A stretch of DNA of 64,000 nt from Candidatus Parcubacteria bacterium (GTDB lineage: Bacteria; Patescibacteriota; Patescibacteriia; Patescibacteriales; UBA12075). How positions within the stretch are numbered: position 1 is the stretch's first letter; each line of letters starts with the position of its first letter. The notes below the pieces were generated by a model, which was not told where the DNA came from, ran no database searches, and saw only the letters and a list, made by a program, of their open reading frames with translations. This document shows positions 31,261-64,000 of the stretch, in pieces. Position numbers and translations under genes: made by a program. The stretch is from positions 3,315 through 67,314 of the forward strand of contig JAGLJW010000022.1 in the NCBI GenBank assembly GCA_023142215.1, given 5' to 3'.

Positions 31261-31310
31261 TTAACAAATTGGTATTTGATGATAATCCTAAACATTAGAA
31301 TTTTAAACTT

Positions 31311-33187: not shown

Positions 33188-33211
33188 TTTTTTAGATTAT
33201 TAATAAATTTT

Positions 33212-46241: not shown

Positions 46242-46306
46242 GACATAATCAAAGTATCATCATGGAGCCGACAGATTTTAAAACAAAGCGAATGCTACAC
46301 CCCACT

Positions 46307-46462
46307 GTCATTCTGGAACGAAGCGAATGCGTAGTGATAGAATCTCGTTGATTACGCAACCTTGCATAATTCATAAGATCCTATCGCTCTAGCTCCAGGA
46401 TGACAATATGTATTTGTATTGCGTAATTCATAGGATCCTATCGCTCTAGCTCCAGGATGACA
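46307..46462. repeat. REP/BIME-like mosaic of the same units found inside the MITE
   Basis: 46307-46404 is an inverted, highly similar copy of 37701-37798 (GTCATTCTGGAACGAAGCGAATGCGTAGTGATAGAAT...GATCCTATCGCTCTAGCTCCAGGATGAC). A further GGATCCTATCGCTCTAGCTCCAGGATGACA unit lies at 46433-46462. It fills the convergent recG/radA spacer. Confidence 0.65.
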
Positions 46463-46471
46463 ACATTCTCA

Positions 46472-47815
46472 TTATAACAAATTTATAATATTGTCTAATT
46501 TTTTAATTTTATTCAACTTAATTTTTTTCGCGACTAAATCCATATCTGGCATAATGACTTGTTTAAAACCAAGTTTTGTAATTTCTGTTAATCTTTCTTT
46601 TATTTTTGCTACTCTTCTAACTTCACCGCCTAAACCAACTTCTCCAAAAACTACCGTATCAACACTCATACCTCTATTTAACATAGCCGAAGTAATAGCC
46701 ATACAAACTGCTAGATCTAATGCCGTATCATTTATCTTTGCACCACCGACAATATTTAATATTACATCTTGATTAATCAAATTTAACCCTACTCGTTTCG
46801 TAAGCACAGCAGTCAATACTTGCAAGCGATTTAAATCAAATCCAGAAGCTTTACGCTGAGGATAACCAAATACTGTTTTAGTTACCAAGGCCTGAACTTC
46901 AACTAAAAATGGTCTTGTGCCTTCCATGACGCAACTTGTAATTGAACCAGGTAAAATTTCATTTTTTTCTTCTAAAAATATTTGAGATGGATTTAATACT
47001 TCTTTAAATCCACTTGAAGTCATTTCAAAAATTCCCATTTCATTTACTGAACCAAAACGATTTTTTTTAGCTCTTAAATAACGATAATCGTGTGCTCTGT
47101 CGCTTTCAAGGTGAATTACAGTATCCACCATGTGTTCTAGAGTTTTTGGACCAGCAATTTGTCCGTCTTTTGTAATATGTCCAGCAAGAATTACAGAAAT
47201 ATCACCACTTTTTGCAAGCTCTAAAAATTTAGCCGTACAGGCTCTAATCTGATTAACACTTCCAATATCAGAAGGAGATTCTCCAGAATATATAGTTTGA
47301 ATTGAATCAATGATAACAAGCGACGGAGATTCTTTTTTTATTGCTGATATAATTTTTTCTGTATTAATTTCAGAAATAAAATTAATATTTTCTGTATTAC
47401 AATTGAGTCTAACCAAACGAGCTTTAACCTGTGCAGCAGATTCTTCACCGCTGATATATATAACGCCTTTTTCAGAAACAGCATCAGCAATTTGAGCTAA
47501 TATCGTTGATTTTCCTATTCCTGGTTCACCTGAAATTAAAATTAAAGAACCAGGAACAATTCCGCCACCAAAAACACGATCCACTTCTTCAATTCCTATT
47601 TTTATTCTTTTTAATTTTTGCGACTCAATATCACCTAAATTTATTACTTTAGCAGGAACAACAGAATCTAATTTCTTTTTCTCTTGTATCCTTTCATCAA
47701 TTACCTCTTCTTGCAATGTGCCCCAAGATCCACATTCTAAACAACGCCCACTCCATTTCTGGAACTGGGCATCGCATTTTGTACATATAAATAATTGTTT
47801 AACTTTTCTCTTCAT
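46472..47815 (-). CDS. radA: DNA repair/recombination protein RadA (Sms)
   Basis: Zn finger CTKCDAQF...CLECGSWG, Walker A GEPGIGKST, KNRFG motif and a Lon-protease-like C-terminal domain. Confidence 0.95.
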   Translation of the reverse strand: MKRKVKQLFICTKCDAQFQKWSGRCLECGSWGTLQEEVIDERIQEKKKLDSVVPAKVINLGDIESQKLKRIKIGIEEVDRVFGGGIVPGSLILISGEPGIGKSTILAQIADAVSEKGVIYISGEESAAQVKARLVRLNCNTENINFISEINTEKIISAIKKESPSLVIIDSIQTIYSGESPSDIGSVNQIRACTAKFLELAKSGDISVILAGHITKDGQIAGPKTLEHMVDTVIHLESDRAHDYRYLRAKKNRFGSVNEMGIFEMTSSGFKEVLNPSQIFLEEKNEILPGSITSCVMEGTRPFLVEVQALVTKTVFGYPQRKASGFDLNRLQVLTAVLTKRVGLNLINQDVILNIVGGAKINDTALDLAVCMAITSAMLNRGMSVDTVVFGEVGLGGEVRRVAKIKERLTEITKLGFKQVIMPDMDLVAKKIKLNKIKKLDNIINLL

Positions 47816-48563
47816 TCTGTTTTAATTCAATCTCAATAATTTTTTCTAAATCTTCAAAATTAATTGTTCCAAATATTTCCTGATCATTAACATAAACAAA
47901 AGGAATTCCAGTAATATCCAAAGCATTAGCCTCAAGTATATTATCTCGTATTCTTGTTCGTCCACGTTCTTCATCTAAACATTTTTCAAACTCAGATACA
48001 TCTAAATTTAATTGCTTAGCAAGCGATAAAAATATTCCCTTACTTAAACTATTATTATTTTCAAAAAGCAAGTCATGATACTCCCAAAACTTATCTTGAT
48101 CTTGAGCACATCTGCCAGCCAAACTCGCTCTATATTGTTCAGAAGTAATTTTACTATCTGGATAATCTTTCCAAATTATTCTAACATTATCTTTATATTT
48201 TTCAATAATTTTATTTAAAACTTTTTCTTGATCTCTACAATAATCACATTTAAAATCAGAAAAATAGACTATATTTACAACTGCTTCATAATTTCCAATA
48301 CTAGGATCTAAATTAGTAATAATAGGACCTCTTAACATATCTCTAAGTTGTGGATTTCTAGTTATGAAAGGATCTTGACGAAAATTTTCATTTAAATAAT
48401 AAGTACCATCTAAATTTTTCTCAACTTTTTGTACTTTATTAAAATAAATTATTTGATTTAAATTTAAAAAAACACCAGATAAAAATATAATAATAAAAGC
48501 CGAAATAGATGCAATTACAAAAATAGAGCTAGAAAATTTTTCTTTTTTAAAAAAATTATACAT
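47799..48563 (-). CDS. DsbA-family thiol:disulfide oxidoreductase, membrane-anchored, intact CDYC active site
   Basis: N-terminal TM, FSDFKCDYCRDQ (CXXC), and GIPFVYVND (cis-Pro loop region). Its last 17 nt overlap the radA start. Confidence 0.75.
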   Translation of the reverse strand: MYNFFKKEKFSSSIFVIASISAFIIIFLSGVFLNLNQIIYFNKVQKVEKNLDGTYYLNENFRQDPFITRNPQLRDMLRGPIITNLDPSIGNYEAVVNIVYFSDFKCDYCRDQEKVLNKIIEKYKDNVRIIWKDYPDSKITSEQYRASLAGRCAQDQDKFWEYHDLLFENNNSLSKGIFLSLAKQLNLDVSEFEKCLDEERGRTRIRDNILEANALDITGIPFVYVNDQEIFGTINFEDLEKIIEIELKQNEEKS

Positions 48564-48586
48564 AAAAATTATATATATTTAATAAT

Positions 48587-49216
48587 TTATTCATTTTTAT
48601 CTTTCCAATAAGCTTCATCAATTTTCCACATTTTTCCATCTTTAATCAAATTGATTAATATGCTTTGACTATAAGCCTTATCGGTATTATTTTTCGTAAC
48701 TAAAGCTTCTTTTCTTCTTGTGCTTATCAAAATACTAGCATAACCAATATTATCGTCAAATTTTCTTACATCAGTAGATATTGCTTTAGTAATTACGCCA
48801 TAATATACTGAAGTGTCAATATTTTTTGCTCTTTGTTCATCCACATAATTCCTTGCCCATTTCCTCATTCTATCACTCATAAAAGTTTCTAAACTTGTAA
48901 TATTATCATAATTTGCCTGATTAGAATAGCTTCCGAATCTTTCCGCAAAAGATATAGCAATTTGAACTACGTCTCTTTCACTCATTTCTTTCTTAATGGG
49001 CTTAATCACTTTTGGTTTTTGTACTTCTTTAGGTTTTGAATCACTTTCTATTATTCCTTTTTTTACTATTTTGTCCGCTTCAATAGGTTGTCTCGTATCT
49101 TCATGCCCAACTGGTTTTTTACTTAAAAAATAATAAATTAATCCTATAGCAATTATTAAAAAAATAAATGCTCCTGCTATTATGATTATACGTTGTCGTT
49201 GTTTTTGTTTATCCAT
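48587..49216 (-). CDS. Bitopic membrane protein; VirB8-like (NTF2-like) candidate by size, topology and position
   Basis: 209 aa with an N-terminal TM (IIIIAGAFIFLIIAIGLIYYFL) and an ectodomain of about 120 aa. It lies immediately downstream of VirB4. No sequence signature is claimed. Confidence 0.3.
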   Translation of the reverse strand: MDKQKQRQRIIIIAGAFIFLIIAIGLIYYFLSKKPVGHEDTRQPIEADKIVKKGIIESDSKPKEVQKPKVIKPIKKEMSERDVVQIAISFAERFGSYSNQANYDNITSLETFMSDRMRKWARNYVDEQRAKNIDTSVYYGVITKAISTDVRKFDDNIGYASILISTRRKEALVTKNNTDKAYSQSILINLIKDGKMWKIDEAYWKDKNE

Positions 49217-49253
49217 ATTGTTTTCAAATATTTATATTAAAATTCATAATTCA

Positions 49254-51176
49254 TTATATATCCATATCTTCAACACCCTCTAACGCCTTATCGTCACTAA
49301 TAGTTGCAGCAAATTCTTTTTTTGCTTCTTCAATAGCTAATAACTGTCTTGGATCAGATGTTATTAACTGATCTTCAGTGTATGAAGCAACCACTTTTAT
49401 GGCTGCATGTTTACTCCCTGCAAAAAATATTCCCTCTCCAACTCCACACTCAAGCAACAAATACTTTTCACCTTCTGTCAATAAGAATGTTTTTTGCACC
49501 AAATCAATTGAAGCTGAAGATTGTTTCAATAAAAGTTGTAAAGATGAATTTGTTACAATTGCCTGTCCGTATGGCGAAGTTAAAAAATCATTAACATCCT
49601 GAGTAATTGTAGTAACACCTAAGTAATATTTACGGCACCGTTTTACTAAAGCAAAAATAAATTTAGCACTGTCTTCGTGTTGCATCAACCACCAAGCTTC
49701 ATCAATTACCAAAATTCTCTTTCTCATCTCACTTCTAACAACATTCCAAATATAATTAACAATAGAATAAATTGCCAATGGTCTAAGCTCATCTTCTAAA
49801 TCTCGTACTGAAAAACAAACTAACTTATTATTCATTTCCACATTCGTTGGATTATTAAATAAACCAGCAAAAGTACCTTGTGTATATTTTAATAAACGTA
49901 AAGACAAACTCTCGCCGCCCTCCATTCCCTCTAAAATATCTTGAAAATCTTGCATAATAGGTGCTTCAATACTAGCTAAATCAACATCGGCAGTAATATC
50001 TTTTTTTGCATAAGTTTCCAATAAAGCTCTATCAATAATAGAATCTTCTTCGTGATTTAAATCACCAAGCATTAATCTTATTAAACCTTTCACTGTAATC
50101 ACAGCACTTCTAATAATATCAGCTGGCCTAGAATCGTCTCCAATTGAACGAGGCAAATCAAATGGATTAACCTTAGCATCAGAAGAAAGAGACAAATTGA
50201 TGTATGTTCCACCAACAGCGTCAGAAAGATGTTTATACTCATATTCAGGATCAATAATAATCACTTCTGTACCAGTCATTAATGCTCGTAAAATTTCTAA
50301 TTTTATGGCATAACTTTTACCAGCACCTGATGTTGCAAACACAACAGAATTGGCATTCTGTAAGCTGAATCTGTCAAACAAAATTAAACTATTATTATGT
50401 CTATTAATACCATACAAGACACCTGTATCAGAAGTTAATTCAGAAGAAATAAAGGGAAATGACGAAGCAACAGGAGAAGAATTCATATTTGAATTAATAA
50501 ATAATTCATCATTACAAAGAGGTAGCGTTGAATTAAATCCTTGTTCGGCTTGATAAAGTACTTTTCTTGAATAAACTAGACGAGAACCAAAAATATTTTC
50601 CACATCTATTGTTAAAATATCAAGATCTTCCTTTTTATTTGAATAAACTGTTACATATAAACCAAACTGGAAAAATCTTTCAATTCCCTGTGTTAAAGCA
50701 TCTCTCAAGGCTTCAATATCGCGAAGAGCTGTTTCGGATAATGGATCACGAGCAGCACCTTTCTCTGCATTTCCAATAATTTCAGCCTCAAGAGTACCAA
50801 CCTTTTTCTTCAACTGCTTTAACACAATCGCTGTCTTTATTGGATAAAAAAACATGGCAATATCAAAAGTTGTATTTAAATTAATAACTGGCGCAAACCA
50901 ACCAACACTAATATAACGCGGATATGTAATAACAAAAATTGTTCTAACAAAAACACCAGATAAAACAAGATGATCAGTGGAAATTTTCATGCTCGCGGGA
51001 GCAATCAAATCTTTTATCATCACTGTACCTCTACGATACATTTTCTCTTCTTCAATAAATCTCTTAGTTTCCCGTGCTGAAACATTAATAACTTTTTCTT
51101 GTTCAGCTTTTTTACTATTTTCTACTTTCTGTTTTAACTTATCTTCTTTTTTAATTTGACTCGGTTGAAATGCCAT
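49254..51176 (-). CDS. virB4: VirB4/TrbE/TcpF-type type IV secretion ATPase, C-terminal 640-aa part
   Basis: IAPASMKIS...RTIFVITYPRYISVGWFAPVINL, Walker A ATSGAGKSYAIK, and Walker B ILVIDEAWWLM. Confidence 0.8.
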   Translation of the reverse strand: MAFQPSQIKKEDKLKQKVENSKKAEQEKVINVSARETKRFIEEEKMYRRGTVMIKDLIAPASMKISTDHLVLSGVFVRTIFVITYPRYISVGWFAPVINLNTTFDIAMFFYPIKTAIVLKQLKKKVGTLEAEIIGNAEKGAARDPLSETALRDIEALRDALTQGIERFFQFGLYVTVYSNKKEDLDILTIDVENIFGSRLVYSRKVLYQAEQGFNSTLPLCNDELFINSNMNSSPVASSFPFISSELTSDTGVLYGINRHNNSLILFDRFSLQNANSVVFATSGAGKSYAIKLEILRALMTGTEVIIIDPEYEYKHLSDAVGGTYINLSLSSDAKVNPFDLPRSIGDDSRPADIIRSAVITVKGLIRLMLGDLNHEEDSIIDRALLETYAKKDITADVDLASIEAPIMQDFQDILEGMEGGESLSLRLLKYTQGTFAGLFNNPTNVEMNNKLVCFSVRDLEDELRPLAIYSIVNYIWNVVRSEMRKRILVIDEAWWLMQHEDSAKFIFALVKRCRKYYLGVTTITQDVNDFLTSPYGQAIVTNSSLQLLLKQSSASIDLVQKTFLLTEGEKYLLLECGVGEGIFFAGSKHAAIKVVASYTEDQLITSDPRQLLAIEEAKKEFAATISDDKALEGVEDMDI

Positions 51177-51179
51177 AAA

Positions 51180-51869: not shown

Positions 51870-51914
51870 TAAATATTTTACACATGAATAACATTAATAA
51901 ATATTATTCATGTT

Positions 51915-52394
51915 CTAAATTTTTTTATTATGTAAACTAATTTTAGTTTCGTCATCTTTTTCTCCTTTATATACACCTTGAGTGTCAACCATTAATGCCA
52001 ACTCATTTAATCTTGATGATGTACGTGTTCTATCATCATTAATAACCTCAACTTTAACATTTTCTATAGCATCACTATTTTCTACATTGTCTTTTCCGAA
52101 CGAATTATTCCATACTCTAGTTTTTGGACTTTTATTAGTTTGTATAAAATTTAATACAAAATAATGAAAAGGCATTTCATCAACTTTATAAAATGCAAAA
52201 ATAGCAGAAATAATTAATTCTGGAATTACAATAGCTAAAAAAGTTGAAAAATAAGTAAGTTTATATACTGCAGCAGCAAATAAAACAGCACCAATCATAA
52301 TTAAAAATTGTCTAGTCGTAATAGGCCCTAAAATTTTATCTTCAACATCAATAAATTGTGGTACTGTAAATTGTTGCATAATTATTTGACTCAC
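51915..52394 (-). CDS. PrgI-family (VirB3-like) small membrane protein
   Basis: QQFTVPQFIDVEDKILGPITTRQFLIMIGAVLFAAAVY matches the PrgI-family N-terminal pattern, followed by a second TM. Confidence 0.6.
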   Translation of the reverse strand: MSQIIMQQFTVPQFIDVEDKILGPITTRQFLIMIGAVLFAAAVYKLTYFSTFLAIVIPELIISAIFAFYKVDEMPFHYFVLNFIQTNKSPKTRVWNNSFGKDNVENSDAIENVKVEVINDDRTRTSSRLNELALMVDTQGVYKGEKDDETKISLHNKKI

Positions 52395-52436
52395 TAACTA
52401 GTATTAATTAGTAAATGCTAAACATTATAAATATTA

Positions 52437-54095
52437 TTAAAAACGTAATTCCCTATTTAAATCCATTATAGCCCGAAATTCTTCTTTTGTTAAGACATCT
52501 TCACTATTTTTTTGCTTTTCATTAATAACAATATCAACCTCAACTTTTTTATTAATAGCCTCATTTCCTAGACCAATATACATCATGTTAATAGGGCTCT
52601 TCCGCCATGCCTTAATTCCAATTAATCTTTGTCCATAACCATCTCGCTCTAAAATACTAACTTTTTCTTTTATTTTTTGGGTGCATTTTCTAGTATCAAC
52701 TCCCAATCTCCTAAATATAACCAAATCCATTTCTTTAAGTTCATCAATTGGACCCATTAACTTTGGCACCTGCTTCACATCAGACACCTTTTTTGTATTA
52801 ATTGGAGAAACCTGTCTAACATTAATTACATTTTCTCTTGAAAATTCTTGATTTTTAACAAGTTGCTCTTCTTTTACACTTTGAATTCCTCCATCACTTT
52901 CTTCAACTTCTTTTTTATCTTCAATATTATTATCTACTTTATTTTTTTTCTCTGTTTGATCTACAACTTGATTATTTTTTTCAACTAACTTTTCTTTATT
53001 TCTTTCTAATTCTTTTAATTGACTTTGATTATTTTCTGTTTTATTTTTCAATTTAGTATAATCATATTCCACATCTCGATCCATGGAACTTAAAGCCTCT
53101 AATAAATCAACATCTTTCTTTTTGTTTATACTCCGACCATCATCTTCAATGATGGATGAATACTCTTTTAAATTGTTTTTTTTGTCAGAAATTATTTTTT
53201 TCGTAACTCTAACGCCATCAAGTTCATTTAAAATTAAATCAATTAATTGAGAATTAAAACTAAGACCTCCAAATTCTGGCGATTTTCCTAAAGACTCAAT
53301 AGTTGTAATTCTATTTCTCACCCCACGTAAATAAGTTCTTAAAATCTGTTCAAAACGAGTTTTAAGCTCACTTGAAGCAAAACTAATTTTTAGCTCACTA
53401 ATTACATTCTGTATTTTTTGTTCAACCTTATCTTTTAAATTACTTTTGTCTTTAATTACTTTAACTACTTCATGCTCAACACTATTATCTTTTCCAATAT
53501 CAATATCCAAATCCTTTACCAAATGTACTTCTTCATTGTTGCTAATAATTTTTTCAGAAATAACTTCTTCTTTAATATCGTTACTTTTCGGCAAAGGTGA
53601 TAAAATTTTATTTTTAAGCTCTTTACTATCCTGAGTTGGAACAGAATCAATTTTAGTAATTATTTTTGGTCTTACTAAAACTATTTTTTCTTTTTCAGTT
53701 TTTTCCGTATAATTAACATCTTTCTTTAAACTGTTTTTTAAAAATTCTGCCGCTAATGGTTCACTAGCATCTTTTTTTATTTCTAAATTATCATTGTAAT
53801 TTTCTTTTAACTCATCTCTTATACCTAAATATGATAAAACATCTTTAAATATCTTTTCTTTTAATTCAAGAAATAGCTTTTCAGCTCGCTCGTCACTCAA
53901 ATCATTCTCAAACATAAAATAACCTTTCAATTTACTAAAAGGTATATCTTTTATCATTACACGCATTATTATAATTGCCAAATTAACTTTATAACGTTTT
54001 TCAATATCATTCACAACAGCCATTGCTTTCTCATCTGAAACTTTGCCCCTAATTTCATCTGGCAATTTATTAAATTTTTGTAATATTACAAGCAT
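52437..54095 (-). CDS. Hypothetical K/E-rich protein; N-terminal ~90 aa paralogous to the 335-aa neighbour
   Basis: 552-aa ORF. The N-terminus KFNKLPDEIRGKVSDE...KRYKVNL...VLSYL parallels KFNELPAYVKLTVDSE...KKYKVNL...VLSCL in the ORF at 54217-55224. Confidence 0.55.
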   Translation of the reverse strand: MLVILQKFNKLPDEIRGKVSDEKAMAVVNDIEKRYKVNLAIIIMRVMIKDIPFSKLKGYFMFENDLSDERAEKLFLELKEKIFKDVLSYLGIRDELKENYNDNLEIKKDASEPLAAEFLKNSLKKDVNYTEKTEKEKIVLVRPKIITKIDSVPTQDSKELKNKILSPLPKSNDIKEEVISEKIISNNEEVHLVKDLDIDIGKDNSVEHEVVKVIKDKSNLKDKVEQKIQNVISELKISFASSELKTRFEQILRTYLRGVRNRITTIESLGKSPEFGGLSFNSQLIDLILNELDGVRVTKKIISDKKNNLKEYSSIIEDDGRSINKKKDVDLLEALSSMDRDVEYDYTKLKNKTENNQSQLKELERNKEKLVEKNNQVVDQTEKKNKVDNNIEDKKEVEESDGGIQSVKEEQLVKNQEFSRENVINVRQVSPINTKKVSDVKQVPKLMGPIDELKEMDLVIFRRLGVDTRKCTQKIKEKVSILERDGYGQRLIGIKAWRKSPINMMYIGLGNEAINKKVEVDIVINEKQKNSEDVLTKEEFRAIMDLNRELRF

Positions 54096-54115
54096 TTTTA
54101 TTGTTAATAATTATC

Positions 54116-54190
54116 AGGGGTTTGTCGGCAAACTACAGTTTTGGCATAAATTTTCAGATTTCGGTCATGCTGTAGTTTGGCAACAGACCC
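54116..54190 (-). repeat. Family-B motif, copy C: full 75-bp version with ~21-bp terminal inverted repeats
   Basis: GGGGTTTGTCGGCAAACTACAG ... CTGTAGTTTGGCAACAGACCC. The left half is near-identical to copy A. It lies about 21 nt upstream of the start at 54095. Confidence 0.6.
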
Positions 54191-54216
54191 ATCATGACCA
54201 TAATTCTATAATCAAA

Positions 54217-55224
54217 CTACGCTTCAGTTTCTTTCTTTTTTATCTCTTCAAAGATAGCTGAATATTCTAATGTGCCTGGTTTGTATTTTTTAAGCATTAT
54301 CTTAAGACCCTCAATCTCTTTTTTGTAAGTAATTTCTTCATTAATAACCTCAGATTCTAAAGTGCCTTGTTCATAATTTAATTTTTCTTTTTTAAGCTCA
54401 TTAATCTTTTTCTCTTCTTCAGATTTTACATTACTAAAAGTTATTGAATCGTTTGAGCCATATTCAACAGGAAAAATTTCCCAATCATCAACATTATCAG
54501 AAAGCATACTTTCTGGAAAAAATTTTATATTTCTATAAAGTAATAATAATTTTTTAAGCAAATCCTTTTCATCTTTATCTAACTTCTTCGCGTTTTCCGA
54601 TTCAGTCATATACTTCATTAAAACAATATTATCAAACATCACGGTTCCATTTTGCTTTATAAAATCTTTTAACCAATTTGAAACTGTTGGAGATTTTGGT
54701 TTTTCTTCTAAACTAAATTTTTTGTTTGTTAATCTTTCTTGATTTTGATATAGCTCTTTTTCGGCCTTGTTTACAAAACTTTGATCTTCAGTTAAAACCA
54801 AAAGAATCTGAAAATTTATTTCATCAAGAATTTCATTGGGATTATTAATTTCATTAATTAAATCTTTATTTAAAATACCTAATATAATATTTTTTATTTC
54901 TCCATTTTTTATTTCATTTTTTTCAGGATCTGGTAATAAAAATCTTAAACGCTTTTCAAGACATGATAAAACCGACTCTCTAAATTCATCTGCAATAATT
55001 TTTGCCTCTTCTGGCTCTTTTTCAAATTCATTGACTATATAATTCTCTATTCCGTCATAGTCCAACTCATTTGTAACAATAAAAAACAACAACACAAACA
55101 AATTTACTTTATATTTTTTGTTTAAAAAAGTTATTTTACTCTTTATTACCTCACTATCAACTGTTAACTTAACATAAGCAGGTAATTCATTAAACTTTTC
55201 AACTGTCCTTTCTATGTTTGTCAT
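54217..55224 (-). CDS. Hypothetical acidic protein; N-terminal domain paralogous to the 552-aa neighbour
   Basis: 335-aa ORF that starts 3 nt after the stop of the VirB6-like gene. Confidence 0.55.
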   Translation of the reverse strand: MTNIERTVEKFNELPAYVKLTVDSEVIKSKITFLNKKYKVNLFVLLFFIVTNELDYDGIENYIVNEFEKEPEEAKIIADEFRESVLSCLEKRLRFLLPDPEKNEIKNGEIKNIILGILNKDLINEINNPNEILDEINFQILLVLTEDQSFVNKAEKELYQNQERLTNKKFSLEEKPKSPTVSNWLKDFIKQNGTVMFDNIVLMKYMTESENAKKLDKDEKDLLKKLLLLYRNIKFFPESMLSDNVDDWEIFPVEYGSNDSITFSNVKSEEEKKINELKKEKLNYEQGTLESEVINEEITYKKEIEGLKIMLKKYKPGTLEYSAIFEEIKKKETEA

Positions 55225-55227
55225 ATT

Positions 55228-57645
55228 TTAGTTTTTAATTACTTTTGTTTTATAATTATCAATATGCTCTGCTGTATCTTCATTATGTGCTTTTAATTTA
55301 TTCAAAACATCTTTTACGGAATCCATTGCAGCCGTATTAATACCACCTAACTCTGCAGCAACTATTCCTTGTTTGTAACCAAGAACACTTTTCATTTCTT
55401 TTGTACTTAAATTTTCACCATTACTTTGCCTAGTGTGTAATGCGGACAATTCTTTCGTTAAATTCTTAACTGCTTTAACTGATTGCTCTGAACCGTTAGA
55501 CATTTCTTCAAACAATTTTTTCTGAGTCCCTGTCTGCCCCTCACTGCTATATGTCGCACTTTGCGAAAATAAAGCACCCTCGCCTCCTCTGGCAATAGAC
55601 TCTATTCGTTTTTCAACTATTTCATTTTCTTTATTTGCCTGTTTTTGAACATTCATCATCATTGAATTGACATGATATCCTTCAAACATACTACTTGGTT
55701 TCTTCATTCCTCCCAAATCTTCTCTATGCTTTTTCCTTGAATCTTCTTGGTCAAATAGAGAACTACGTTTAATTTCTCCTCTTTTTGCGTCTGTGTCATT
55801 TTTAATCTTTCCAACCTCTACATCTTTACCTGCCATAACATTAATATGAGATTCTAAATCAATATTAATATCTTCCATTTCTTTATTAAAATCTTTCAAA
55901 ATCTCATTTTTGGCCCATTCAAATTTCTCTGGCTCGGATTTATATTCTGTATTTGCATTATTTATTGCATTATCTCTTCTGTTCCCAGCTACTATCATAT
56001 TTTTACCAACTTCAGTCATTTTTGCTTGCATACTAGGCAATCTAGACAAATCATTATTTCTACTAAAATTAATTTTATCTATATCTTCTTTTTCTTTGCC
56101 TTTAATACTTTCAATCTTTTCATCTTTTAATTTTTTAGAATCATTAACATCGCTATCATATTCATTAACTTTTTTCTTATAATTAGAAGCTTTTTTTGCT
56201 CTATATATATTAAAAGCAGCTGCTCCGCCTAATGCTAAACCAGCCAAAGGATTTACAGCAGTTGCAACTGCTGCTGCACCAGCAACTTGTCCTGTATGTT
56301 TAAGTGTTTTGCCTGTTTTGCTATCAGCAAAATTCGCTGCAGCATCACGAATATTTTTACGTGTTTTATCACCCATACCAAGTTTCTGACCTACGGCACC
56401 CATGTTTGATCTAAGAGATTTAGCTCGTGCATCATGCACATCAGAACTCCAATTTCTCATAAGTTTACCTCTACTTGAATCTTTACTTGTTGCCATCACT
56501 CCAACTCCAAGTGCAGCAGATCCTGCCACCTGCCCACTTCTTTTTAATATCTGTCCAGGCATTTTTGAAAGTATTGTTTTCCCTTGCCCAATCGCACCAA
56601 GCCCTTTTCCTGCTACACCACCAACAGCTCCACCCATTTCTGAGGCAACTTTTAAACCTCCAACAAGCATTCCAATAGCAATTAAAAAAGGAATAAAACT
56701 TGTCTCACTCATCATAGCATGTTGACCAGCCTGAAGACCTGTGCTAGCATCTCCAACAATTTTTTTAGCTATGTCTTGCTTTGCAGTTTGTCCAATAATT
56801 AATGCTAACCATAAAAAGAATACCAATATCGGACCAATAACTACATTCTTTACAAACTCATCACTCCATTTGCTAAAATATTTTTGACCGCCCGGAAAGC
56901 CATAAAGCATAAAAGCCAATGGTGACAAAACAACATAAATCCAAAGCATTACTATTCTAAAAATTAAAGTAACCAAAATAACTAAAAGGACAACTGCTCC
57001 TATAGCTACAAATATCAAAGACACTATCAAACCACCAGTAACCTCCCAAAATTTGACGGCCTCCGCGGAAAAACCTTTTGTCTTTATCATTTCTATATAC
57101 TTATCAACACCTAAAGACTGAATAAATGAAGCTCCTGTACTTCCGATTGGATCTGCAAAAAAAACCATTAAGAACTGAGAAATATCAATTACAAAACCAC
57201 AAATTGACTTTGAATAATTAACTAAAAAAGCCATTAATATTAATTTGGGTAATGCTTTTTTAACAGTGTAACCTTCAATCCTAAGTATTGTTGAAAAAGC
57301 AATTATCACCATTGCTAATATGAAAAACATATTTGCAAAATTTAATATTTGAGTCCAGGCTAAAATAATACTTTTTTCTCCAATAAAATCATTATAGTTA
57401 ATTAACAAAATTATTGATTTTATAGCCAAAGTCAAAAACCAACCAAATACTATTAAGCCAAGCTGTGCTATATAAGCAAAAATTGTTAATACACCATTTT
57501 GTACAGTATTTATTATCTTGCTATCAGGCTCATCTGCCGCTTGAATACAAGAAATATCAATAAAAATATTGTAAAAAACAAAAACAAATAAAAAAACTAT
57601 TAATAGTATCTTTTTATTATTTATTTTTAAAAATATTTTTTTCAT
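55228..57645 (-). CDS. Polytopic membrane protein, VirB6/TrbL-like candidate, with a long hydrophilic C-terminal half
   Basis: 805 aa with a signal-like N-terminus (ILLIVFLFVFVFYNIFIDISCIQAADEP) and about 7-8 hydrophobic helices in the first ~400 aa, then a Gly/Ala-rich and K/E-rich coiled region. The call rests on topology and locus context. Confidence 0.45.
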   Translation of the reverse strand: MKKIFLKINNKKILLIVFLFVFVFYNIFIDISCIQAADEPDSKIINTVQNGVLTIFAYIAQLGLIVFGWFLTLAIKSIILLINYNDFIGEKSIILAWTQILNFANMFFILAMVIIAFSTILRIEGYTVKKALPKLILMAFLVNYSKSICGFVIDISQFLMVFFADPIGSTGASFIQSLGVDKYIEMIKTKGFSAEAVKFWEVTGGLIVSLIFVAIGAVVLLVILVTLIFRIVMLWIYVVLSPLAFMLYGFPGGQKYFSKWSDEFVKNVVIGPILVFFLWLALIIGQTAKQDIAKKIVGDASTGLQAGQHAMMSETSFIPFLIAIGMLVGGLKVASEMGGAVGGVAGKGLGAIGQGKTILSKMPGQILKRSGQVAGSAALGVGVMATSKDSSRGKLMRNWSSDVHDARAKSLRSNMGAVGQKLGMGDKTRKNIRDAAANFADSKTGKTLKHTGQVAGAAAVATAVNPLAGLALGGAAAFNIYRAKKASNYKKKVNEYDSDVNDSKKLKDEKIESIKGKEKEDIDKINFSRNNDLSRLPSMQAKMTEVGKNMIVAGNRRDNAINNANTEYKSEPEKFEWAKNEILKDFNKEMEDINIDLESHINVMAGKDVEVGKIKNDTDAKRGEIKRSSLFDQEDSRKKHREDLGGMKKPSSMFEGYHVNSMMMNVQKQANKENEIVEKRIESIARGGEGALFSQSATYSSEGQTGTQKKLFEEMSNGSEQSVKAVKNLTKELSALHTRQSNGENLSTKEMKSVLGYKQGIVAAELGGINTAAMDSVKDVLNKLKAHNEDTAEHIDNYKTKVIKN

Positions 57646-57659
57646 TATTTTTTTAAAAT

Positions 57660-58277
57660 TTAGTTAAATATCCAACCAAATATTTTTTTACCTATCCAAG
57701 GAAGTGGTCCACCACTTTTCGCCATATCTACAGTAGTTTCTATGGCTGTTTCTTTTGTAGCTTCTATAATGACATCCGCTGAATGTGCAAACATATATAC
57801 AACTATTATTATAATAGTAATAATAGCCATAAAGAAAAGTGCAAGCAATAAATCTAAAAGCGCTATTCCTATTTTATCACCTAATCTTAATTTAACTTTA
57901 TTACTAAAACAAGATCCTGCAGCTACTACATGTAATCCAATAAAACCAGGAACAAATCCCATAAACGACGCTGTAAGTATCCATAACTTATTCATCAAAA
58001 CGCCAGTTGACTTCTTTTTTAATTTATTCGCACCAAGACTTTTTTCTAATAAAACCTTTTTTGACTTAATTATTCTCTCTGATGCTTTTCTTCCTTCTTG
58101 AATTGATTTATTTTTATTAACTGCTGTAATCTGTTCTCTGATATCATTATTTACAACATTTTGTTCTTGCTCTCTTCTTTCGCTAGCTCGTTCTTCTTGT
58201 ATTTGGCTAGAAACTTTATTTTCATGATTAAAAAATAATAATCTCTCATCTATAGAATTGAACGAATTATTTGACAT
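57660..58277 (-). CDS. Hypothetical membrane protein (hydrophilic N-terminal ~100 aa plus two TM helices)
   Basis: 205-aa ORF with LWILTASFMGFVPGFIGLHVVAAG and IALLDLLLALFFMAIITIIIIVVYMF. A VirB2-like role is possible but unsupported. Confidence 0.5.
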   Translation of the reverse strand: MSNNSFNSIDERLLFFNHENKVSSQIQEERASERREQEQNVVNNDIREQITAVNKNKSIQEGRKASERIIKSKKVLLEKSLGANKLKKKSTGVLMNKLWILTASFMGFVPGFIGLHVVAAGSCFSNKVKLRLGDKIGIALLDLLLALFFMAIITIIIIVVYMFAHSADVIIEATKETAIETTVDMAKSGGPLPWIGKKIFGWIFN

Positions 58278-58285
58278 AGTTTTTA

Positions 58286-61200
58286 TTAATTTTCTGCAAC
58301 AATAATATAAACATCAGACTCTACATAACTATCTTCACAAATATCAGTTACTACTGGACAATGATCATCCATTCCACAAATACCACCATAAACACCAGCT
58401 AGATTACGACATTGTTTTCTTGGTAAGCATGGTCTTGTATTAATACCTTCGCTACACCAACCCCAATTATCCATTATTTTTACTTTTGGCTTAACAATAC
58501 AATAATTCAATGTAGGAGCCACTGGTAATGTTATGGTTGATGCACCACCAAAATTAGGTGCTACCATATTTCCAGCATCAGCACAATAAATAATGTTCTC
58601 CTCTAAGGTACCCTGATCTACAGAATGTTGTGATTTTAAATCCCAATAACTATATAAATGATAAAAAGAGTGCGGATTGTTAGCATTAGATCTATCACGC
58701 ATTTCAACGCCTGTTACAACAGTTCTATTGCTATCTCCCCAGTCAACAGAATATAATATTAAAGGCAACTGTTGACTATTAACAATACTATTAAATGTAA
58801 GATTCACAAAACCATTTTTATGTAAAGTAGTGTTCACATTTAATCCATTTAATTTAATATTTCTTATTTCTGGTGGATAAGCACAATATTCAATTGGAGA
58901 CAACTCTCTAGTGGAACTAGCACATACATTAATCGGAGGAGACCATTCAGGCACAGACGAATCAGGTAAATATCTTAATGTATTTGACACACAATCACCA
59001 CCACCTGGAGCACAATAATTATCTCCTGGCGTTAAACTACTATCACATAAAATGTCAACATTGGTCCCTGTGGCACATTTAGCTAATACGTTAGGAATAC
59101 AATTCCCGCCAGGACAACAAGCCATATTAATATCAGCGGGACATCCCCAACCATTGATTGACGTTCCTACACCATTAGTATCAAAACATCCGAGACAGTC
59201 ACCAACACACTCTGCACCAATTAATTCCCCAGCATCACAATAATTACCAGCTGGTATTACACATGTACTGTCAGGACATTGCGGAGCACAACCTCCCTGC
59301 ATAATATCTCCATTATTAGTACCACCAATACATTCGTAAGTCTGATTCCATGTCCAATGACCGTAGCTTTGTGCAAAAAGTTTTTTCAAGGCACTTTCAG
59401 CTTCAATGGTAGTTGTATATGGATTTACTTGATAAACATTAACAAATTCCTGCGGAATTTTACAATCACCAGTTGTTCCAATACAAGCATAAGGGCTTCC
59501 TGCTCTCGCTTTAAGAGCAGGAAGATCAACAACTAATGGCTGAAATCCTGGAAGATTTTCATTACTATCCCATTCATGTGGATTAGAAACTACACTCCAA
59601 TAATCTTGAGATTTATAGTCAACTGGAGGAACAATAGAGCCAAACGGATTATAATCTGTAGAATAAGTATAATTAAGAAAAGGCACCATATAATCACTTC
59701 CTTTATAAACTCGCCCACTCCAAAATTTATTTTTCCCCGTTGAGGTTACTAGCTGTACAATTTTATCACAATAATCATCTCTGGCATAAATTTGAACTCT
59801 GCCACCAGGACACATACAATATCCATTAGAATTTACAAATTTAATACTAGTTAAATAATCATCATTATTAAAATAAAAAGTACCTGTTATATTACCAACT
59901 GTTACTGGTATAGCAGGATCATCTCCTGGATCATTAAAAGTCCAATTACCGCTACCATGCTTCCCACAATGATTTTTATGTGCACAATGAGTATATTCCA
60001 TAAAAATATTAACACTATGCAATTTCCATCTCTTTATATACTCCTCTGGTTTTAAGTCAAAAATTACACTTACCACCTTACTATTCACAAAAACTCTATT
60101 AACCATTAACTGAGATCGACCTATAGCAAGTTGACAATAATAAACAGGAAATCTGTCTAAATATCCAGCCCCTTCTTCAATCCCTTCTCCTTTTACCTTA
60201 TCAATAGGATACCAAAGTAAACATGTATCTTTATCTCCTGGATATTTGTCATATTCTAAACAATAACCATGCCAACCTTTTTTCATAATACCTGAGTCTT
60301 CATAATAATTACAAGAAAGTGCATTACCTTCAGGATAAAGACGACAAGATTGTTCAACATATTCTTCGAAAACACTTGTACTTATTTTTTTTGTAGCTAA
60401 AACAGGACGTATTTTCATATCATCAATATAAACATTTCCAACACACGAATCACCTCTCGCCTCAATAGGAAAAATACCACCACCACCAAAAGTACAACCC
60501 CAAGCGGTAGTATCTAAATTAGTAACTCCACGAGACGCACATGTAGCATTTGGAGAAAATGCCCTGTTTAATGGATCAGTACAATTCGGATCCGGACCAG
60601 CAACTTTTTGGCAACACTGTGCAGAAAGATAAATTTTACCATAGCCTGTTATTTTAATCTTCTTTGTATTACCACCAACGATAAACTTAATTTGTTCTTC
60701 AGTCCAGTCAAGCCCTCCTTGGAAATTAATACCACATCCATTATACCAAGTTTGTTTTTGTTCATCACCATTCTGATTTACACATTGAATTAAATCAACA
60801 CCTGAACCAGGATGTGCACTACTTCCAACTGGCGTACCAGTAGCACTAAAAGTTGAAATGAGCAGTGAAAGAACTAAAGTATCAACACCATCTCCTTTTT
60901 TAAAATTTAAAGTATTTGCTTTAACTGAAAGGGTATATTCTGCACCTGGTTCAACATCTATGAATTCAGAAACAATATCGCCCTCTGCTGGAGAATACTT
61001 TAGAAAAGATTCCCCCGAAACAGGATAATCAATACCTTCAACCTGAGCAGAATATGGATTATTAATTACTGAAAATTTATTTTCATTCCAACCTTGCTGT
61101 GCTGATAGCCAACCAACAGGATAAAAATCTGCACCATACAATTCAAAATTTCCATTTGATATCATCGCAATTTCACCAAGTTGTTCCATGTTTCCTAAGG

Positions 61201-64000
61201 GATATAAATCAGACTCCAATGAACCATCTTTTAGTCCAACTTTGCTATAACCAGAATAATTAGCATATTTACCAGAATATGGCAAAACATAACTTTGATT
61301 TTCTTTTTTAGTTAATTCAAAGCTATCACAATTACCTTCATTGTCTAAACTATTACATAAACTAATATCAAAACATTTGTTGCCGCCATCATCATCATCT
61401 TTTAAATAACTTCTACAGGCTAGCCAAGACTCACAAGCCCTATCTGGACTGACTTTAAATAAAGCGTTAGAATCACAATTACCTGGAGTACAACTTTGTG
61501 GTGAAAGATTAATAATGTCCGCATCATAAATTAACTCCGCATAATTCAAACCACTAAAAGCTCTTTCATTAAATAAAACACACCCTTCATTTATATTTAC
61601 AACACCATTACAACTTGTTCTGTCCACTTCTTGTTTTAATTGATATTCAATGATAAGTTCTTTAAGAATTACTTCTGACCCATTATTGTGTGCTGTATTT
61701 GTAACTAACATTGTAGCCATGCCACCATTTTGAACATAAAAGACAGAACCTGAAACAACGCCTCCAACATTAACAAAACCGACAGAATTTAAAGAATTAT
61801 CATCTTGCAAATGGAAGATAGGAGCAAAAGTAACAGTAGCTGTATTCACGCCAGCAACACTTATTTTATATAAAGTATTGTCTTTTAGATACACAGTCTG
61901 ATTACCAGCAACCGTCCAACCATCAGACTGACCATTAACATCAAGATCTTGTGAAAAATCACTATTAAATAAAATATTAGAGCTAAAACTTGCAGCAGAA
62001 TCAACATATTCAGTACAACCAGATTCTGATATTGGACATAAACCTACCCAATCATTTGTAGGCTGACCTATTTTAACACCATTATATCCAAAAGTTTTAT
62101 TATAAGCTATATTAGGAGCACATTCAATATCAGTTTTATTATCCTCCAAGATACAGCTATGAAAACACATCCCCGCAATACATTTATTGTAAGTATTGAC
62201 ACCACCACAATCTGAATCTGAATCACACACTATTGGTAATATTGGATTATTACAATCTGTATGTTTTAAGCAATAATTCGTTTCTTGCAAATTACCAATA
62301 GCATTAAAATCAATTACACCATTATCGGCTGCACCTGCACCAAACCCATCATCACATCTTTTTACTCGTTTGGTATACCAATCTTGCCCCGTATTATCAC
62401 TATAACCTTTACGATGCTCACAAATTTTATCACCTGGATTTATAAAATACGTTTCACCTTCAGTCTCGCTGAGCCAACTTTCACAACCTTCATAACCACC
62501 CATACACAAAATACTATTATAAATATCTGGATCATTAATTAAATAAGTATTTTTATGAACTTCTTGTCCATCATAATTTACAACTTGACCTAATCGTTCA
62601 CATCCTTTTTCAGTTTCAAAACAAGATTTTTCTGGATTATAAACCACATATACAAATTTATCTTTTTGCGTAGTTTGACTCATAGTTACAACGGTACCTG
62701 TTGCTATTGAATTATGAGTATCAATCATCATTTCACAACCAATAGAAGAATCCTGACAAAGTTGGTCAAATCTTCTTAAATAAGAAATATCACTATCCCT
62801 ATCATAATAACCAGCGCAACCTAAATTCCATTCTGGTCCTTGATATTCATCAAAAATATCATCATAACAAGAATCAGGAATTTGTGATGAATTTTTAATA
62901 AGATAATATCTGTCAGAAATAGCTATTAAACGAATACTGTCAATATGAAATCCCGTATTAGCACCAATATAAAGCATCTCACCTGTAGTACTAGCTATAT
63001 AAGTACTGCTAGCATTATTAAAATCATCTAAATTAAACTCATAAAATCTCCATTCTCCAGCCTTTAAAGTCTTACTTTCTATTCCACCTAAATTAAAAGA
63101 AATATATTTATCTGGATTAGCTGGATCTGTACCAAAACGAATATAATCAAAGTTTCCAGAAACTCCAGCAGGCTTAGCTAAAAAACTAATTATATAAGCT
63201 TGGTTTGTTTGTACAATATTACTAACATTTTTAGAAGTTAGATTAATACCACCAACACTTAAAGAACTTTCACCAGAAACTAATGAATCAGCTGTTATAG
63301 CACCATTACTCCATCCAGATACATGACCAGATTCAAAATCATCCTCAATAATTACTTTTACATTTGCTCCTAGATTTCCACTATATTCACGACAACCATC
63401 TTGACTTGCACTACACATCTCACCCTCTCTTGGAATTGCCAAATAAATACAAGATTGATGAATCACATCCCAATATCCACCATTTATACAAGAAATACAT
63501 TCACCAGAAACTCCCGAACTTTGCCAACATTTATCACTACCTTGAGAAAGATTATTATCGCATGCTAAACCACCATTACAATCCACGCTAGCAACCGAAG
63601 GGTCAACATTAACCTCAGTTCGTCTATAGGGATGACAATCATTGGAACAAGTTATAGTATGATGAACAAATTTATAGGCAATATCACCATTCTGATTATA
63701 AAACTCACGACACATTGGATTAGTTAATAAATCATACGTTGAACTAGCACACGTTTGCCCTTTGTAATAATTACTATACACTTCAGGATAATTACTGCCA
63801 TCGTCCTCCAAAACATGAGAAACAATCTGTAAACCAGATTCAGCCGAACCTTCCCATGTATAAAAAATAGAACAATTTACATTCGGAATAACTTCAGAGG
63901 TAGTAGTACATTGCTTCATGTATGTATAATACTCAATGTTTTCACCGCCATCATCTACAGCATCTAAATTAGTAAATTGATCACAACCAGCCGCTTCCGA
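58286..64000 (-). CDS. Giant cysteine-rich extracellular protein with three CBM4_9-like jelly-roll modules; 5' end lies beyond the window
   Basis: The ORF track starts it at the Met at 63919. The 27 codons upstream (SEAAGCDQFTNLDAVDDGGENIEYYTY) are in frame with no stop, so the ORF is open to nt 64000. I counted about 89 Cys in the 1877 listed residues by hand. Lectin-like blocks: IEDDFESGHVSGW...FHIDSIRL, NSDFSQDLDVNGQSDGW, and ISNGNFELYGADFYPVGW...VYIDDMKIRPV. Confidence 0.8.
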   Translation of the reverse strand, partial: SEAAGCDQFTNLDAVDDGGENIEYYTYMKQCTTTSEVIPNVNCSIFYTWEGSAESGLQIVSHVLEDDGSNYPEVYSNYYKGQTCASSTYDLLTNPMCREFYNQNGDIAYKFVHHTITCSNDCHPYRRTEVNVDPSVASVDCNGGLACDNNLSQGSDKCWQSSGVSGECISCINGGYWDVIHQSCIYLAIPREGEMCSASQDGCREYSGNLGANVKVIIEDDFESGHVSGWSNGAITADSLVSGESSLSVGGINLTSKNVSNIVQTNQAYIISFLAKPAGVSGNFDYIRFGTDPANPDKYISFNLGGIESKTLKAGEWRFYEFNLDDFNNASSTYIASTTGEMLYIGANTGFHIDSIRLIAISDRYYLIKNSSQIPDSCYDDIFDEYQGPEWNLGCAGYYDRDSDISYLRRFDQLCQDSSIGCEMMIDTHNSIATGTVVTMSQTTQKDKFVYVVYNPEKSCFETEKGCERLGQVVNYDGQEVHKNTYLINDPDIYNSILCMGGYEGCESWLSETEGETYFINPGDKICEHRKGYSDNTGQDWYTKRVKRCDDGFGAGAADNGVIDFNAIGNLQETNYCLKHTDCNNPILPIVCDSDSDCGGVNTYNKCIAGMCFHSCILEDNKTDIECAPNIAYNKTFGYNGVKIGQPTNDWVGLCPISESGCTEYVDSAASFSSNILFNSDFSQDLDVNGQSDGWTVAGNQTVYLKDNTLYKISVAGVNTATVTFAPIFHLQDDNSLNSVGFVNVGGVVSGSVFYVQNGGMATMLVTNTAHNNGSEVILKELIIEYQLKQEVDRTSCNGVVNINEGCVLFNERAFSGLNYAELIYDADIINLSPQSCTPGNCDSNALFKVSPDRACESWLACRSYLKDDDDGGNKCFDISLCNSLDNEGNCDSFELTKKENQSYVLPYSGKYANYSGYSKVGLKDGSLESDLYPLGNMEQLGEIAMISNGNFELYGADFYPVGWLSAQQGWNENKFSVINNPYSAQVEGIDYPVSGESFLKYSPAEGDIVSEFIDVEPGAEYTLSVKANTLNFKKGDGVDTLVLSLLISTFSATGTPVGSSAHPGSGVDLIQCVNQNGDEQKQTWYNGCGINFQGGLDWTEEQIKFIVGGNTKKIKITGYGKIYLSAQCCQKVAGPDPNCTDPLNRAFSPNATCASRGVTNLDTTAWGCTFGGGGIFPIEARGDSCVGNVYIDDMKIRPVLATKKISTSVFEEYVEQSCRLYPEGNALSCNYYEDSGIMKKGWHGYCLEYDKYPGDKDTCLLWYPIDKVKGEGIEEGAGYLDRFPVYYCQLAIGRSQLMVNRVFVNSKVVSVIFDLKPEEYIKRWKLHSVNIFMEYTHCAHKNHCGKHGSGNWTFNDPGDDPAIPVTVGNITGTFYFNNDDYLTSIKFVNSNGYCMCPGGRVQIYARDDYCDKIVQLVTSTGKNKFWSGRVYKGSDYMVPFLNYTYSTDYNPFGSIVPPVDYKSQDYWSVVSNPHEWDSNENLPGFQPLVVDLPALKARAGSPYACIGTTGDCKIPQEFVNVYQVNPYTTTIEAESALKKLFAQSYGHWTWNQTYECIGGTNNGDIMQGGCAPQCPDSTCVIPAGNYCDAGELIGAECVGDCLGCFDTNGVGTSINGWGCPADINMACCPGGNCIPNVLAKCATGTNVDILCDSSLTPGDNYCAPGGGDCVSNTLRYLPDSSVPEWSPPINVCASSTRELSPIEYCAYPPEIRNIKLNGLNVNTTLHKNGFVNLTFNSIVNSQQLPLILYSVDWGDSNRTVVTGVEMRDRSNANNPHSFYHLYSYWDLKSQHSVDQGTLEENIIYCADAGNMVAPNFGGASTITLPVAPTLNYCIVKPKVKIMDNWGWCSEGINTRPCLPRKQCRNLAGVYGGICGMDDHCPVVTDICEDSYVESDVYIIVAEN

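Follow-up and report, generated by a model that had tools for sequence, protein, structure and literature searches.

The type IV secretion systems (T4SS) of the Patescibacteria have been surveyed across 3,035 genomes (Quinonero-Coronel et al., 2025, Microb Genom; PMC12102498), and it is with these systems that we compare a string of eleven genes at positions 46472-64000 of contig stretch JAGLJW010000022.1 from a Candidatus Parcubacteria bacterium (the whole stretch of 64,000 nucleotides that was analysed is referred to here as the window). In the survey, 2,425 Patescibacteria VirB4 proteins formed a monophyletic clade nested in the mating-pair formation class FATA (MPF-FATA), with TrsD, PrgI/VirB3 and VirB6 encoded close to virB4 (PMC12102498). 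TrsD is the most abundant T4SS component in Patescibacteria and its arrangement with VirB4 is known from pGO1-type systems, VirB8 homologues occur almost only in the class ABY1, the T4SS loci of ABY1 are associated with radA, recG and comF, and a relaxase was found near only 15 of 2,474 Patescibacteria virB4 genes (PMC12102498). The T4SS of Saccharibacteria, which is without recognisable coupling or relaxase proteins, is essential in Southlakia (Wang et al., 2023, Cell; PMC10633639). In the same organism, loss of comEC abolishes competence and leaves viability unaffected. Reviews that describe the function of the Patescibacteria T4SS as unknown bring up effector delivery as well as uptake of the ComB kind (PMC11665869).

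The string considered here is an intact copy of this already described chromosomal, non-conjugative T4SS, of the class ABY1 type. A preliminary description of the window had correctly placed it in the candidate phyla radiation (CPR) and had proposed an undescribed system, a claim of novelty that fails because Patescibacteria T4SS have already been described (PMC12102498; PMC10633639); the ComB-like import that it raised has also been published (PMC11665869). The sole feature without an earlier description is a conserved giant cysteine-rich surface protein that adjoins VirB6. Literature searches returned no prior description of this family, and the published descriptions of Patescibacteria T4SS make no mention of the giant protein, DsbA or the other accessory genes (PMC12102498; PMC10633639; PMC11665869). 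The part of the supplement text of the large survey that was available holds no DsbA, Thioredoxin_4, radA or CBM entries (PMC12102498).

The translocon core

All the genes listed in the preliminary description are present as co-directional, tightly packed open reading frames (ORFs) on the minus strand. The spacing between them runs from a 17-bp overlap to 45 bp, with the exception of one 121-bp gap at 54096-54216. In the direction of transcription, the string comprises:

58286-64000 (-): giant Cys-rich protein, C-terminal 1,904 aa, with the ORF open to base 64000
57660-58277 (-): 205-aa protein, hydrophilic at its N-terminus and with two transmembrane (TM) helices at its C-terminus, from TM prediction (the 2-TM protein)
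55228-57645 (-): VirB6/TrbL-like polytopic protein, 805 aa, from TrbL matches and TM prediction
54217-55224 (-): 335-aa soluble acidic protein, no TM segment and no family match, in module A
52437-54095 (-): 552-aa soluble protein, no family match, the first gene of module B
51915-52394 (-): PrgI/VirB3-like protein (PF12666), two TM helices
51180-51869 (-): TrsD/TraC-like 229-aa protein, free-standing and homologous to the N-terminal region of VirB4
49254-51176 (-): VirB4 ATPase of the MPF-FATA / CD1110 type (NF045971, P-loop_TraG, Walker motifs)
48587-49216 (-): VirB8-like bitopic protein, 209 aa, from an AlphaFold2 (AF2) model and Foldseek
47799-48563 (-): membrane-anchored DsbA-like thiol-disulfide oxidoreductase (Thioredoxin_4 1e-26, DSBA 1e-19)
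46472-47815 (-): RadA/Sms recombination helicase (TIGR00416), the last gene of the string

The string encodes a minimal monoderm T4SS translocon, consisting of VirB4, a TrsD-like protein, PrgI, an extended VirB6/TrbL and a VirB8-fold protein. Profile matches and Foldseek bear out the identities first proposed for VirB4, PrgI/VirB3, the VirB8-like protein, DsbA and RadA, and the Gram-positive-like gene order that had been noted does match that of MPF-FATA operons. VirB4 scores 348.6 bits against the NCBIfam CD1110 family (NF045971, cutoff 325) and matches P-loop_TraG at 6e-27, and its translation retains an intact Walker A (ATSGAGKS) and Walker B (ILVIDE). It is 74-81% identical to orthologues in Falkowbacteria/ABY1 genomes, against 28-35% for the VirB4 proteins of Firmicutes and Actinobacteria plasmids; a match to CedB is partial and weak (4.5e-11).

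The 229-aa protein upstream of VirB4 had been read, together with it, as a VirB4 in two in-frame pieces. These are instead a TrsD and VirB4 pair. The smaller protein matches TrsD (NF041427, TrsD/TraD-like) at 4.5e-6 and, over residues 90-284, the mycoplasma family VirB4_plasma at 1.8e-10, and PF26593 (TraC-like) is found on its orthologues. In all of 39 related loci, a stop codon closes the TrsD-like gene and VirB4 is a separate ORF, so the split is ancestral; the two genes share a reading frame in 17 of these loci and differ in 22, and the in-frame arrangement in the window is therefore a coincidence. The same counts rule out a pseudogene or stop-codon recoding as the origin of the split.

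PrgI exceeds the cutoff of PF12666 (46.6 bits, cutoff 27) and its position is kept in 48 of 80 loci. The VirB6-like protein (NCBI KAI92_02060) has about eight TM helices in its first 470 aa, followed by a hydrophilic C-terminal tail of about 330 aa (an "extended VirB6"). Its topology fits the assignment to VirB6/TrbL, and TrbL was matched in 7 of 28 homologues (best 1.3e-6), and a homologue in L089 carries a weak match to PF19590 (TrbL_3); the score of the window copy itself is considered further below. A profile of the family matched PDB entries through coiled-coil and low-complexity segments of the C-terminal extension only. For the 209-aa protein, no sequence-level Pfam family was found and a family profile against PDB sequences gave noise, so that a fold search was needed to identify it as VirB8-like. 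The AF2 model, built from a 34-sequence alignment, has a predicted local distance difference test (pLDDT) score of 86.5 and consists of an N-terminal TM helix and an NTF2-like domain. Its top PDB matches in Foldseek were CagV, TraM, PrgL, TraH, TcpC, TraE, VirB8 and DotI, with a TM-score of up to 0.74 (normalised by target length).

The giant protein and its link to VirB6

The giant gene is complete on an identical contig (L001; ENA ERZ23498485) that supplies the stretch beyond the window end, where it begins ~2.9 kb past the window end and encodes 2,854 aa. The part within the window has 90 cysteines in 1,904 aa (4.7%; the other 45 ORFs have 0.87%), and 74 of 118 cysteines are kept in at least 80% of 60 homologues. 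The preliminary description had also assigned it carbohydrate-binding modules (CBM). This holds for the family, as CBM_4_9 was found in 13 of 17 homologues (best 2.8e-9), and less well for the window copy, in which the match is sub-threshold (E=0.0046); Laminin_G_3 and MAM each occur in one member. A single N-terminal hydrophobic segment is followed by an A-x-A-like site, from which Sec-dependent export is expected, and the giant is predicted to be a secreted or N-terminally anchored protein with CBM_4_9-like beta-sandwich modules.

The family has at least 350 full-length members, which are 2,200-3,150 aa long and all annotated as hypothetical. Orthologues across loci are only ~30-45% identical, the most conserved stretch of the family being the N-terminal ~600 aa (up to 74% identity). 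A profile of the N-terminal 665 aa retrieved 1,830 clusters at 50% identity (1,136 at E<=1e-30), and every top match was a giant, or a fragment of one, that carries the domain N-terminally. A V-R-G-D-Y motif is near-invariant in this most conserved N-terminal domain (P0121 residues 356-360, ~1.8 kb past base 64000). In the giant family it is probably structural, and the sole reason for mentioning it is the importance of RGD motifs in CagL, a T4SS pilus adhesin.

Conservation of the string was surveyed with each GTDB species represented by a single genome. Homologues of the VirB6-like protein number in the hundreds, a relative being encoded in 442 species-representative genomes, and the best 80 loci out of these 442 were kept; many of the genomes belong to Ca. 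Falkowbacteria or BM507, class ABY1. When all the cluster proteins were searched by tblastn, a single order was found to be conserved: TSP3-giant-[2-TM]-VirB6-335-552-PrgI-TrsD-VirB4-VirB8-like-(DsbA)-RadA. Among the 50 loci with at least 9 kb of upstream sequence, to which the count was restricted, the giant gene lies upstream of VirB6 in 44. In five diverse giant homologues, genes for a 2-TM protein, a VirB6-like protein and a ~300-aa protein follow in 5/5, either directly or after one or two inserted genes. The linkage of the giant exported Cys-rich CBM protein with VirB6 is tight and ancient.

At the other end of the string, radA is the next gene after the VirB8-like gene, or is separated from it by dsbA alone, in 32 of 34 loci, and in most loci it either starts within the end of dsbA or begins 11-50 bp downstream of the VirB8-like gene. 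The operonic linkage of radA is near-universal in the lineage, and dsbA is an optional member of the string. The synteny expected in relatives is therefore seen for the giant and radA and only in part for dsbA, the count for which is given below. In the window, dsbA overlaps the start of radA by 17 bp. RadA scores 526 bits against TIGR00416 (cutoff 403) and has the zinc ribbon, Walker A and KNRFG motifs. The DsbA of the string has the intact CDYC that had been reported, at residue 106, and is the only CxxC-bearing DsbA-like protein encoded in the window. A second DsbA-like paralogue at 17809-18573 (-) is 29% identical to it and reads DFENKF where the latter has DFKCDYC; with its CxxC active site lost, the paralogue is probably redox-inactive.

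Two modules and their accessory proteins

The conserved string consists of two modules, the boundary between which falls in the 121-bp gap. Module A comprises the TSP3-repeat protein, the giant, the 2-TM protein, VirB6 and the 335-aa protein; module B comprises the 552-aa protein, PrgI, TrsD, VirB4, VirB8 and radA. Two further features are needed here:

L001 722-1405: TSP3-repeat membrane protein, ~230 aa, directly preceding the giant gene
54113-54195 (-): stem-loop inside the 121-bp gap, at the boundary of module A and module B

In several genomes the string is broken after the 335-aa gene, either by insertions of 6-8 kb or by full separation, and where it is split, module A stays together and module B is found elsewhere in the genome. 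The break point in these genomes corresponds to the only large gap of the string in the window, the one that holds the stem-loop. Within the cluster, insertions of 6-8 kb or of single genes (for a response regulator, a Kelch beta-propeller protein, ORF6N and PDDEXK_3) were seen in some species, always at module boundaries; the loci are L021, L029, L040, L050, L052, L074 and L084, between VirB6 and the 552-aa homologue, and L085 (18541-20827).

The stem-loop is formed by an inverted repeat of 26 nt (81% complementary) and is relatively GC-rich; the other inverted repeats within the string, with this sole exception, are short and AT-rich. Its RNA folds at -33.3 kcal/mol (z = -4.2), and none of 200 shuffled sequences was equally stable. 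Its role may be that of an attenuator or of a processing site. Scans of the locus for promoter and terminator consensus sequences gave no excess over shuffled sequences and, as the DNA is AT-rich, are uninformative.

A TSP3 protein (a bacterial, Ca-binding repeat) precedes the giant in ~20 of the 24 loci with enough upstream sequence (including L009, L013, L020, L088 and L089). On L001, the ~1.4 kb ahead of the giant gene contains just two genes, for a TSP3-repeat membrane protein of 227 aa and for a Na/Ca exchanger. Further upstream, KsgA and leucyl-tRNA synthetase (LeuRS) were found in 4/5 look-ups, the genome of the window having the Na/Ca exchanger there instead.

The 205-aa 2-TM protein is a lineage-specific T4SS accessory protein. 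It has no Pfam family match, and in nearly all loci a ~180-260-aa protein of matching layout lies directly upstream of VirB6; these proteins share conserved motifs (alignment A5) and are too divergent for tblastn. An identity as a VirB2/TrbC pilin was considered and rejected, there being no Pfam match among 28 positional homologues. By tblastn, the 335-aa protein was matched in 62 of 80 loci, in each case immediately downstream of VirB6, and the 552-aa protein is conserved in 50 of 80. These two had been called paralogous unknowns. What they share is an N-terminal domain of ~80 aa (BLASTP E=2e-6, residues 5-82), and no paralogy extends beyond it.

Genomic neighbourhood

The surroundings of the string include several genes of DNA processing and a type IV pilus cluster:

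44175-46241 (+): RecG helicase (RecG_wedge 5e-25, DEAD, Helicase_C, RecG_dom3_C), convergent with radA
36860-37480: uracil-DNA glycosylase (UDG), between the type IV pilus cluster and the T4SS string
35611-36399 (+): ComF-like phosphoribosyltransferase-domain protein (Pribosyltran 4.7e-9 at the C-terminus)
22615-34249 (-): complete type IV pilus cluster (PilM, two unknowns, PilB, PilT, PilC, N-methyl pilins, prepilin peptidase)

The pilus cluster lies 12 kb from the T4SS string, and both the ComF-like gene and UDG are situated between the two. GatA and LigA are also encoded in the window, as is a small islet with a HicA-like gene, a KAP NTPase and a Bro-N protein, and there are three tRNA genes and a fourth, tRNA-Ser, at 15.9 kb. 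GC content is 26-34% across the whole window and the composition is uniform; GC skew is strongly negative over the entire 64 kb (-0.04 to -0.45), and nearly all genes are on the minus strand. A run of GT4/GT2 glycosyltransferases, S-adenosylmethionine (SAM) methyltransferases, a PMT_2-like protein and an NAD-dependent epimerase at 1422-15934 (-) presumably serves a surface glycan.

A structured intergenic repeat of ~100 nt occurs at 37700-37799 (+), 46306-46405 (-) and 46419-46466 (-). Its 29-mer TGTCATCCTGGAGCTAGAGCGATAGGATC has exactly three occurrences against none expected, the repeat has no Rfam match, and the radA/recG spacer folds with z = -3.9. Inverted copies flank a segment of 8.5 kb that holds the HicA-like gene, the KAP NTPase, the Bro-N protein, three tRNAs and recG. 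The repeat may be a repetitive extragenic palindromic (REP) or miniature inverted-repeat transposable element (MITE)-like element, or may mark the ends of an inversion or insertion.

A conjugative element would be recognised by a relaxase, a coupling protein, an integrase or replication module and an oriT, and none of these was found in the 64 kb or in the ~1.4 kb upstream of the giant. Pfam scans of all window ORFs of at least 100 aa agree with the preliminary description in finding no VirD4/TcpA, relaxase, VirB11, VirB1-type hydrolase or integrase. A relaxase, VirD4 or other type IV coupling protein (T4CP), or integrase just beyond the window had been named as something to look for, and the ~1.4 kb upstream of the giant gene on L001 contains none.

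Interpretation

We propose that the locus is a known ABY1-type T4SS translocon to which the giant/VirB6 module is joined as the host-contact part, and we put the probability of this explanation as a whole at roughly 75%. The giant would be exported via Sec by its N-terminal signal or anchor, and its oxidative folding would take place outside the membrane, through the neighbouring CDYC DsbA in loci that have dsbA. It would then act as the extracellular host-contact part that binds glycans, with VirB6 and the 2-TM protein as its docking site, and would take the place of the adhesins in Gram-positive conjugation systems or of the VirB2 pili in other Patescibacteria. VirB4, TrsD, PrgI and VirB8 would power the transfer of macromolecules across the epibiont membrane at the contact site. 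The conserved and apparently co-transcribed radA, together with recG, comF and the nearby type IV pilus cluster, may tilt the balance weakly toward the uptake or processing of nucleic acids.

The more specific part of this proposal is offered tentatively, at somewhat less than even odds. In it, the giant and the TSP3-repeat, 2-TM and 335-aa proteins would together be the extracellular working part of the ABY1-type T4SS, a new "extended VirB6 + giant exoprotein" sub-architecture that forms a disulfide-stabilised, glycan-binding host-contact or conduit structure in place of the VirB2 pilus or the Gram-positive adhesins.

Several observations weigh against the proposal. The putative link between the giant protein and the T4SS is drawn from synteny, and only 14 of 32 loci have a dsbA in the interval from the VirB8-like gene to radA. 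RadA has a universal housekeeping function, and its sharing of the operon may come from a compact genome. The N-terminal domain of the giant has no Pfam (N-terminal 991 aa), PDB or plasmid match, and an AF2 model of residues 36-700, from a multiple sequence alignment of 15 sequences, is unusable (pLDDT 39). The window copy of the putative VirB6 matches TrbL at only E=0.0012 and 19 bits, under the Pfam cutoff of 25.9. Membership of VirB4 in the published Patescibacteria clade is likewise putative, being read from identity levels. Lastly, the T4SS of Southlakia is essential and comEC is dispensable, so the essential role there is not transformation.

The first of the other explanations is that the T4SS core is real and the giant, DsbA and RadA are bystanders, kept in place by slow rearrangement and operon compaction in tiny genomes. 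The patchy occurrence of dsbA speaks for this, as does the nature of radA, a universal repair gene (TIGR00416 equivalog); the housekeeping genes for KsgA and LeuRS are also conserved neighbours, and the genomes compared all come from one class-level lineage. However, the giant stays with the 2-TM and VirB6 genes despite breaks and insertions and although its orthologues are only ~30-45% identical, the giant, 2-TM and VirB6 genes are spaced by 8-14 bp, radA is set closely behind dsbA or the VirB8-like gene in most loci, and enrichment of radA, recG and comF has been reported independently (PMC12102498). We regard this explanation as unlikely, if still to be taken seriously.

A DNA-import machine like H. 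pylori ComB or archaeal Ced, in which DNA from the host or the environment is processed by RadA, RecG and ComF for recombination or nucleotide salvage, is a doubtful alternative of similar standing. There is no T4CP or relaxase, as in ComB, radA appears to be co-transcribed in 32 of 34 loci, recG, the ComF-like gene and the type IV pilus cluster lie within the same 25 kb, VirB4 has its weak, partial match to CedB (4.5e-11), and such a role has been proposed in the literature (PMC11665869). Nevertheless, in the one Patescibacterium tested genetically, competence needs ComEC and type IV pili, and the essentiality of the T4SS does not depend on ComEC. Among the cluster proteins no DNA-binding component was recognised, the VirB2/7/9/10 parts of ComB are absent, and the direction of transport cannot be read from sequence.

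Quite unlikely, in our judgement, is a system for the export of effectors or other proteins that manipulates or lyses the host cell, as proposed for Saccharibacteria. The missing relaxase and coupling protein have been suggested to point to protein export or an alternative role (PMC10633639), effector delivery is mentioned in a PNAS perspective (PMC11665869), and protein exporters without a T4CP exist, for example Ptl and Brucella VirB (PMC12102498). Yet no candidate effectors or coupling protein are encoded in the 64 kb, the giant is not a T4SS substrate because it has its own Sec-type N-terminus, and the neighbourhood is enriched in DNA-processing and not in toxin/immunity functions.

It is very improbable that the locus is the remnant of an ordinary integrative conjugative element (ICE) or plasmid with its relaxase, VirD4 and integrase outside the window, as, although this VirB4 family is otherwise found on Gram-positive conjugative elements and a Bro-N protein, KAP NTPase, HicA-like gene and tRNAs lie 3-8 kb away, the same cluster is found in the same chromosomal context in dozens of species, neither the 64 kb nor the ~1.4 kb upstream of the giant (L001) holds a mobility gene, GC content is uniform, and relaxases are so rarely found near Patescibacteria virB4 genes (15 of 2,474; PMC12102498).

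The locus adds no new system to a T4SS that is essential in the one species tested and whose function has been described as completely unknown. What it does offer is the giant family (>1,100 clusters at 50% identity), a widespread candidate for a part that is still missing in the large class ABY1, the extracellular or host-contact component, and, in the two separable modules and the coupling of giant and VirB6, specific targets for structural and metatranscriptomic studies.

Comparison with known systems

The closest relatives of the locus are the T4SS of other Patescibacteria, with which it shares a VirB4 of MPF-FATA ancestry, a separate TrsD, PrgI/VirB3, a putative VirB6 and VirB8 (PMC10633639; PMC12102498). 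As in ABY1, it is chromosomal, has no relaxase or T4CP nearby, and has radA, recG and comF in the window. Unlike the published descriptions of Patescibacteria T4SS, it adds the giant, the 2-TM protein, the TSP3-repeat protein, two soluble unknowns and, frequently, DsbA. A VirB2-like pilin array has been reported for Saccharimonadia and Microgenomatia, whereas none was detected at this locus by Pfam.

The order VirB6...VirB3-(TrsD)-VirB4-VirB8-like is also that of Gram-positive MPF-FATA systems (prgH-I-J-K-L of pCF10; trsC-D-E of pGO1/pSK41; CD1110 of CTn2), and the likeness extends to a CD1110-family VirB4 above the NCBIfam cutoff, the PrgI family and a PrgL/TraM/TcpC-like NTF2 fold. In contrast to these systems, there is no relaxase, T4CP (PcfC/TcpA), VirB1-type hydrolase (PrgK/TrsG) or PrgB-type adhesin, the locus is not on a mobile element, and VirB4 is only 28-35% identical to the plasmid homologues.

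H. pylori ComB and archaeal Ced are, like this locus, machines built on a VirB4-family ATPase without a relaxase or coupling protein. Both are functionally tied to recombination, and Ced also to type IV pili. However, ComB has VirB2/7/9/10 for the outer membrane, none of which was detected at this locus by Pfam/NCBIfam, Ced uses CedA/A1/A2, and neither has a giant Cys-rich partner.

For the giant itself, the nearest parallels are PrgB of pCF10 and the FhaB-domain exoproteins of Patescibacterium danicum (PMC11809585), which are also very large exported proteins with a presumed role in cell-cell contact, and such large adhesins are likewise encoded in small epibiont genomes or beside T4SS genes. 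The giant family is nonetheless unrelated in sequence to PrgB and FhaB, having its own N-terminal domain of ~600 aa, 74 conserved cysteines and CBM_4_9 modules, and its full-length orthologues, unlike the FhaB-type exoproteins of ABY1 (PMC11809585), are widespread.

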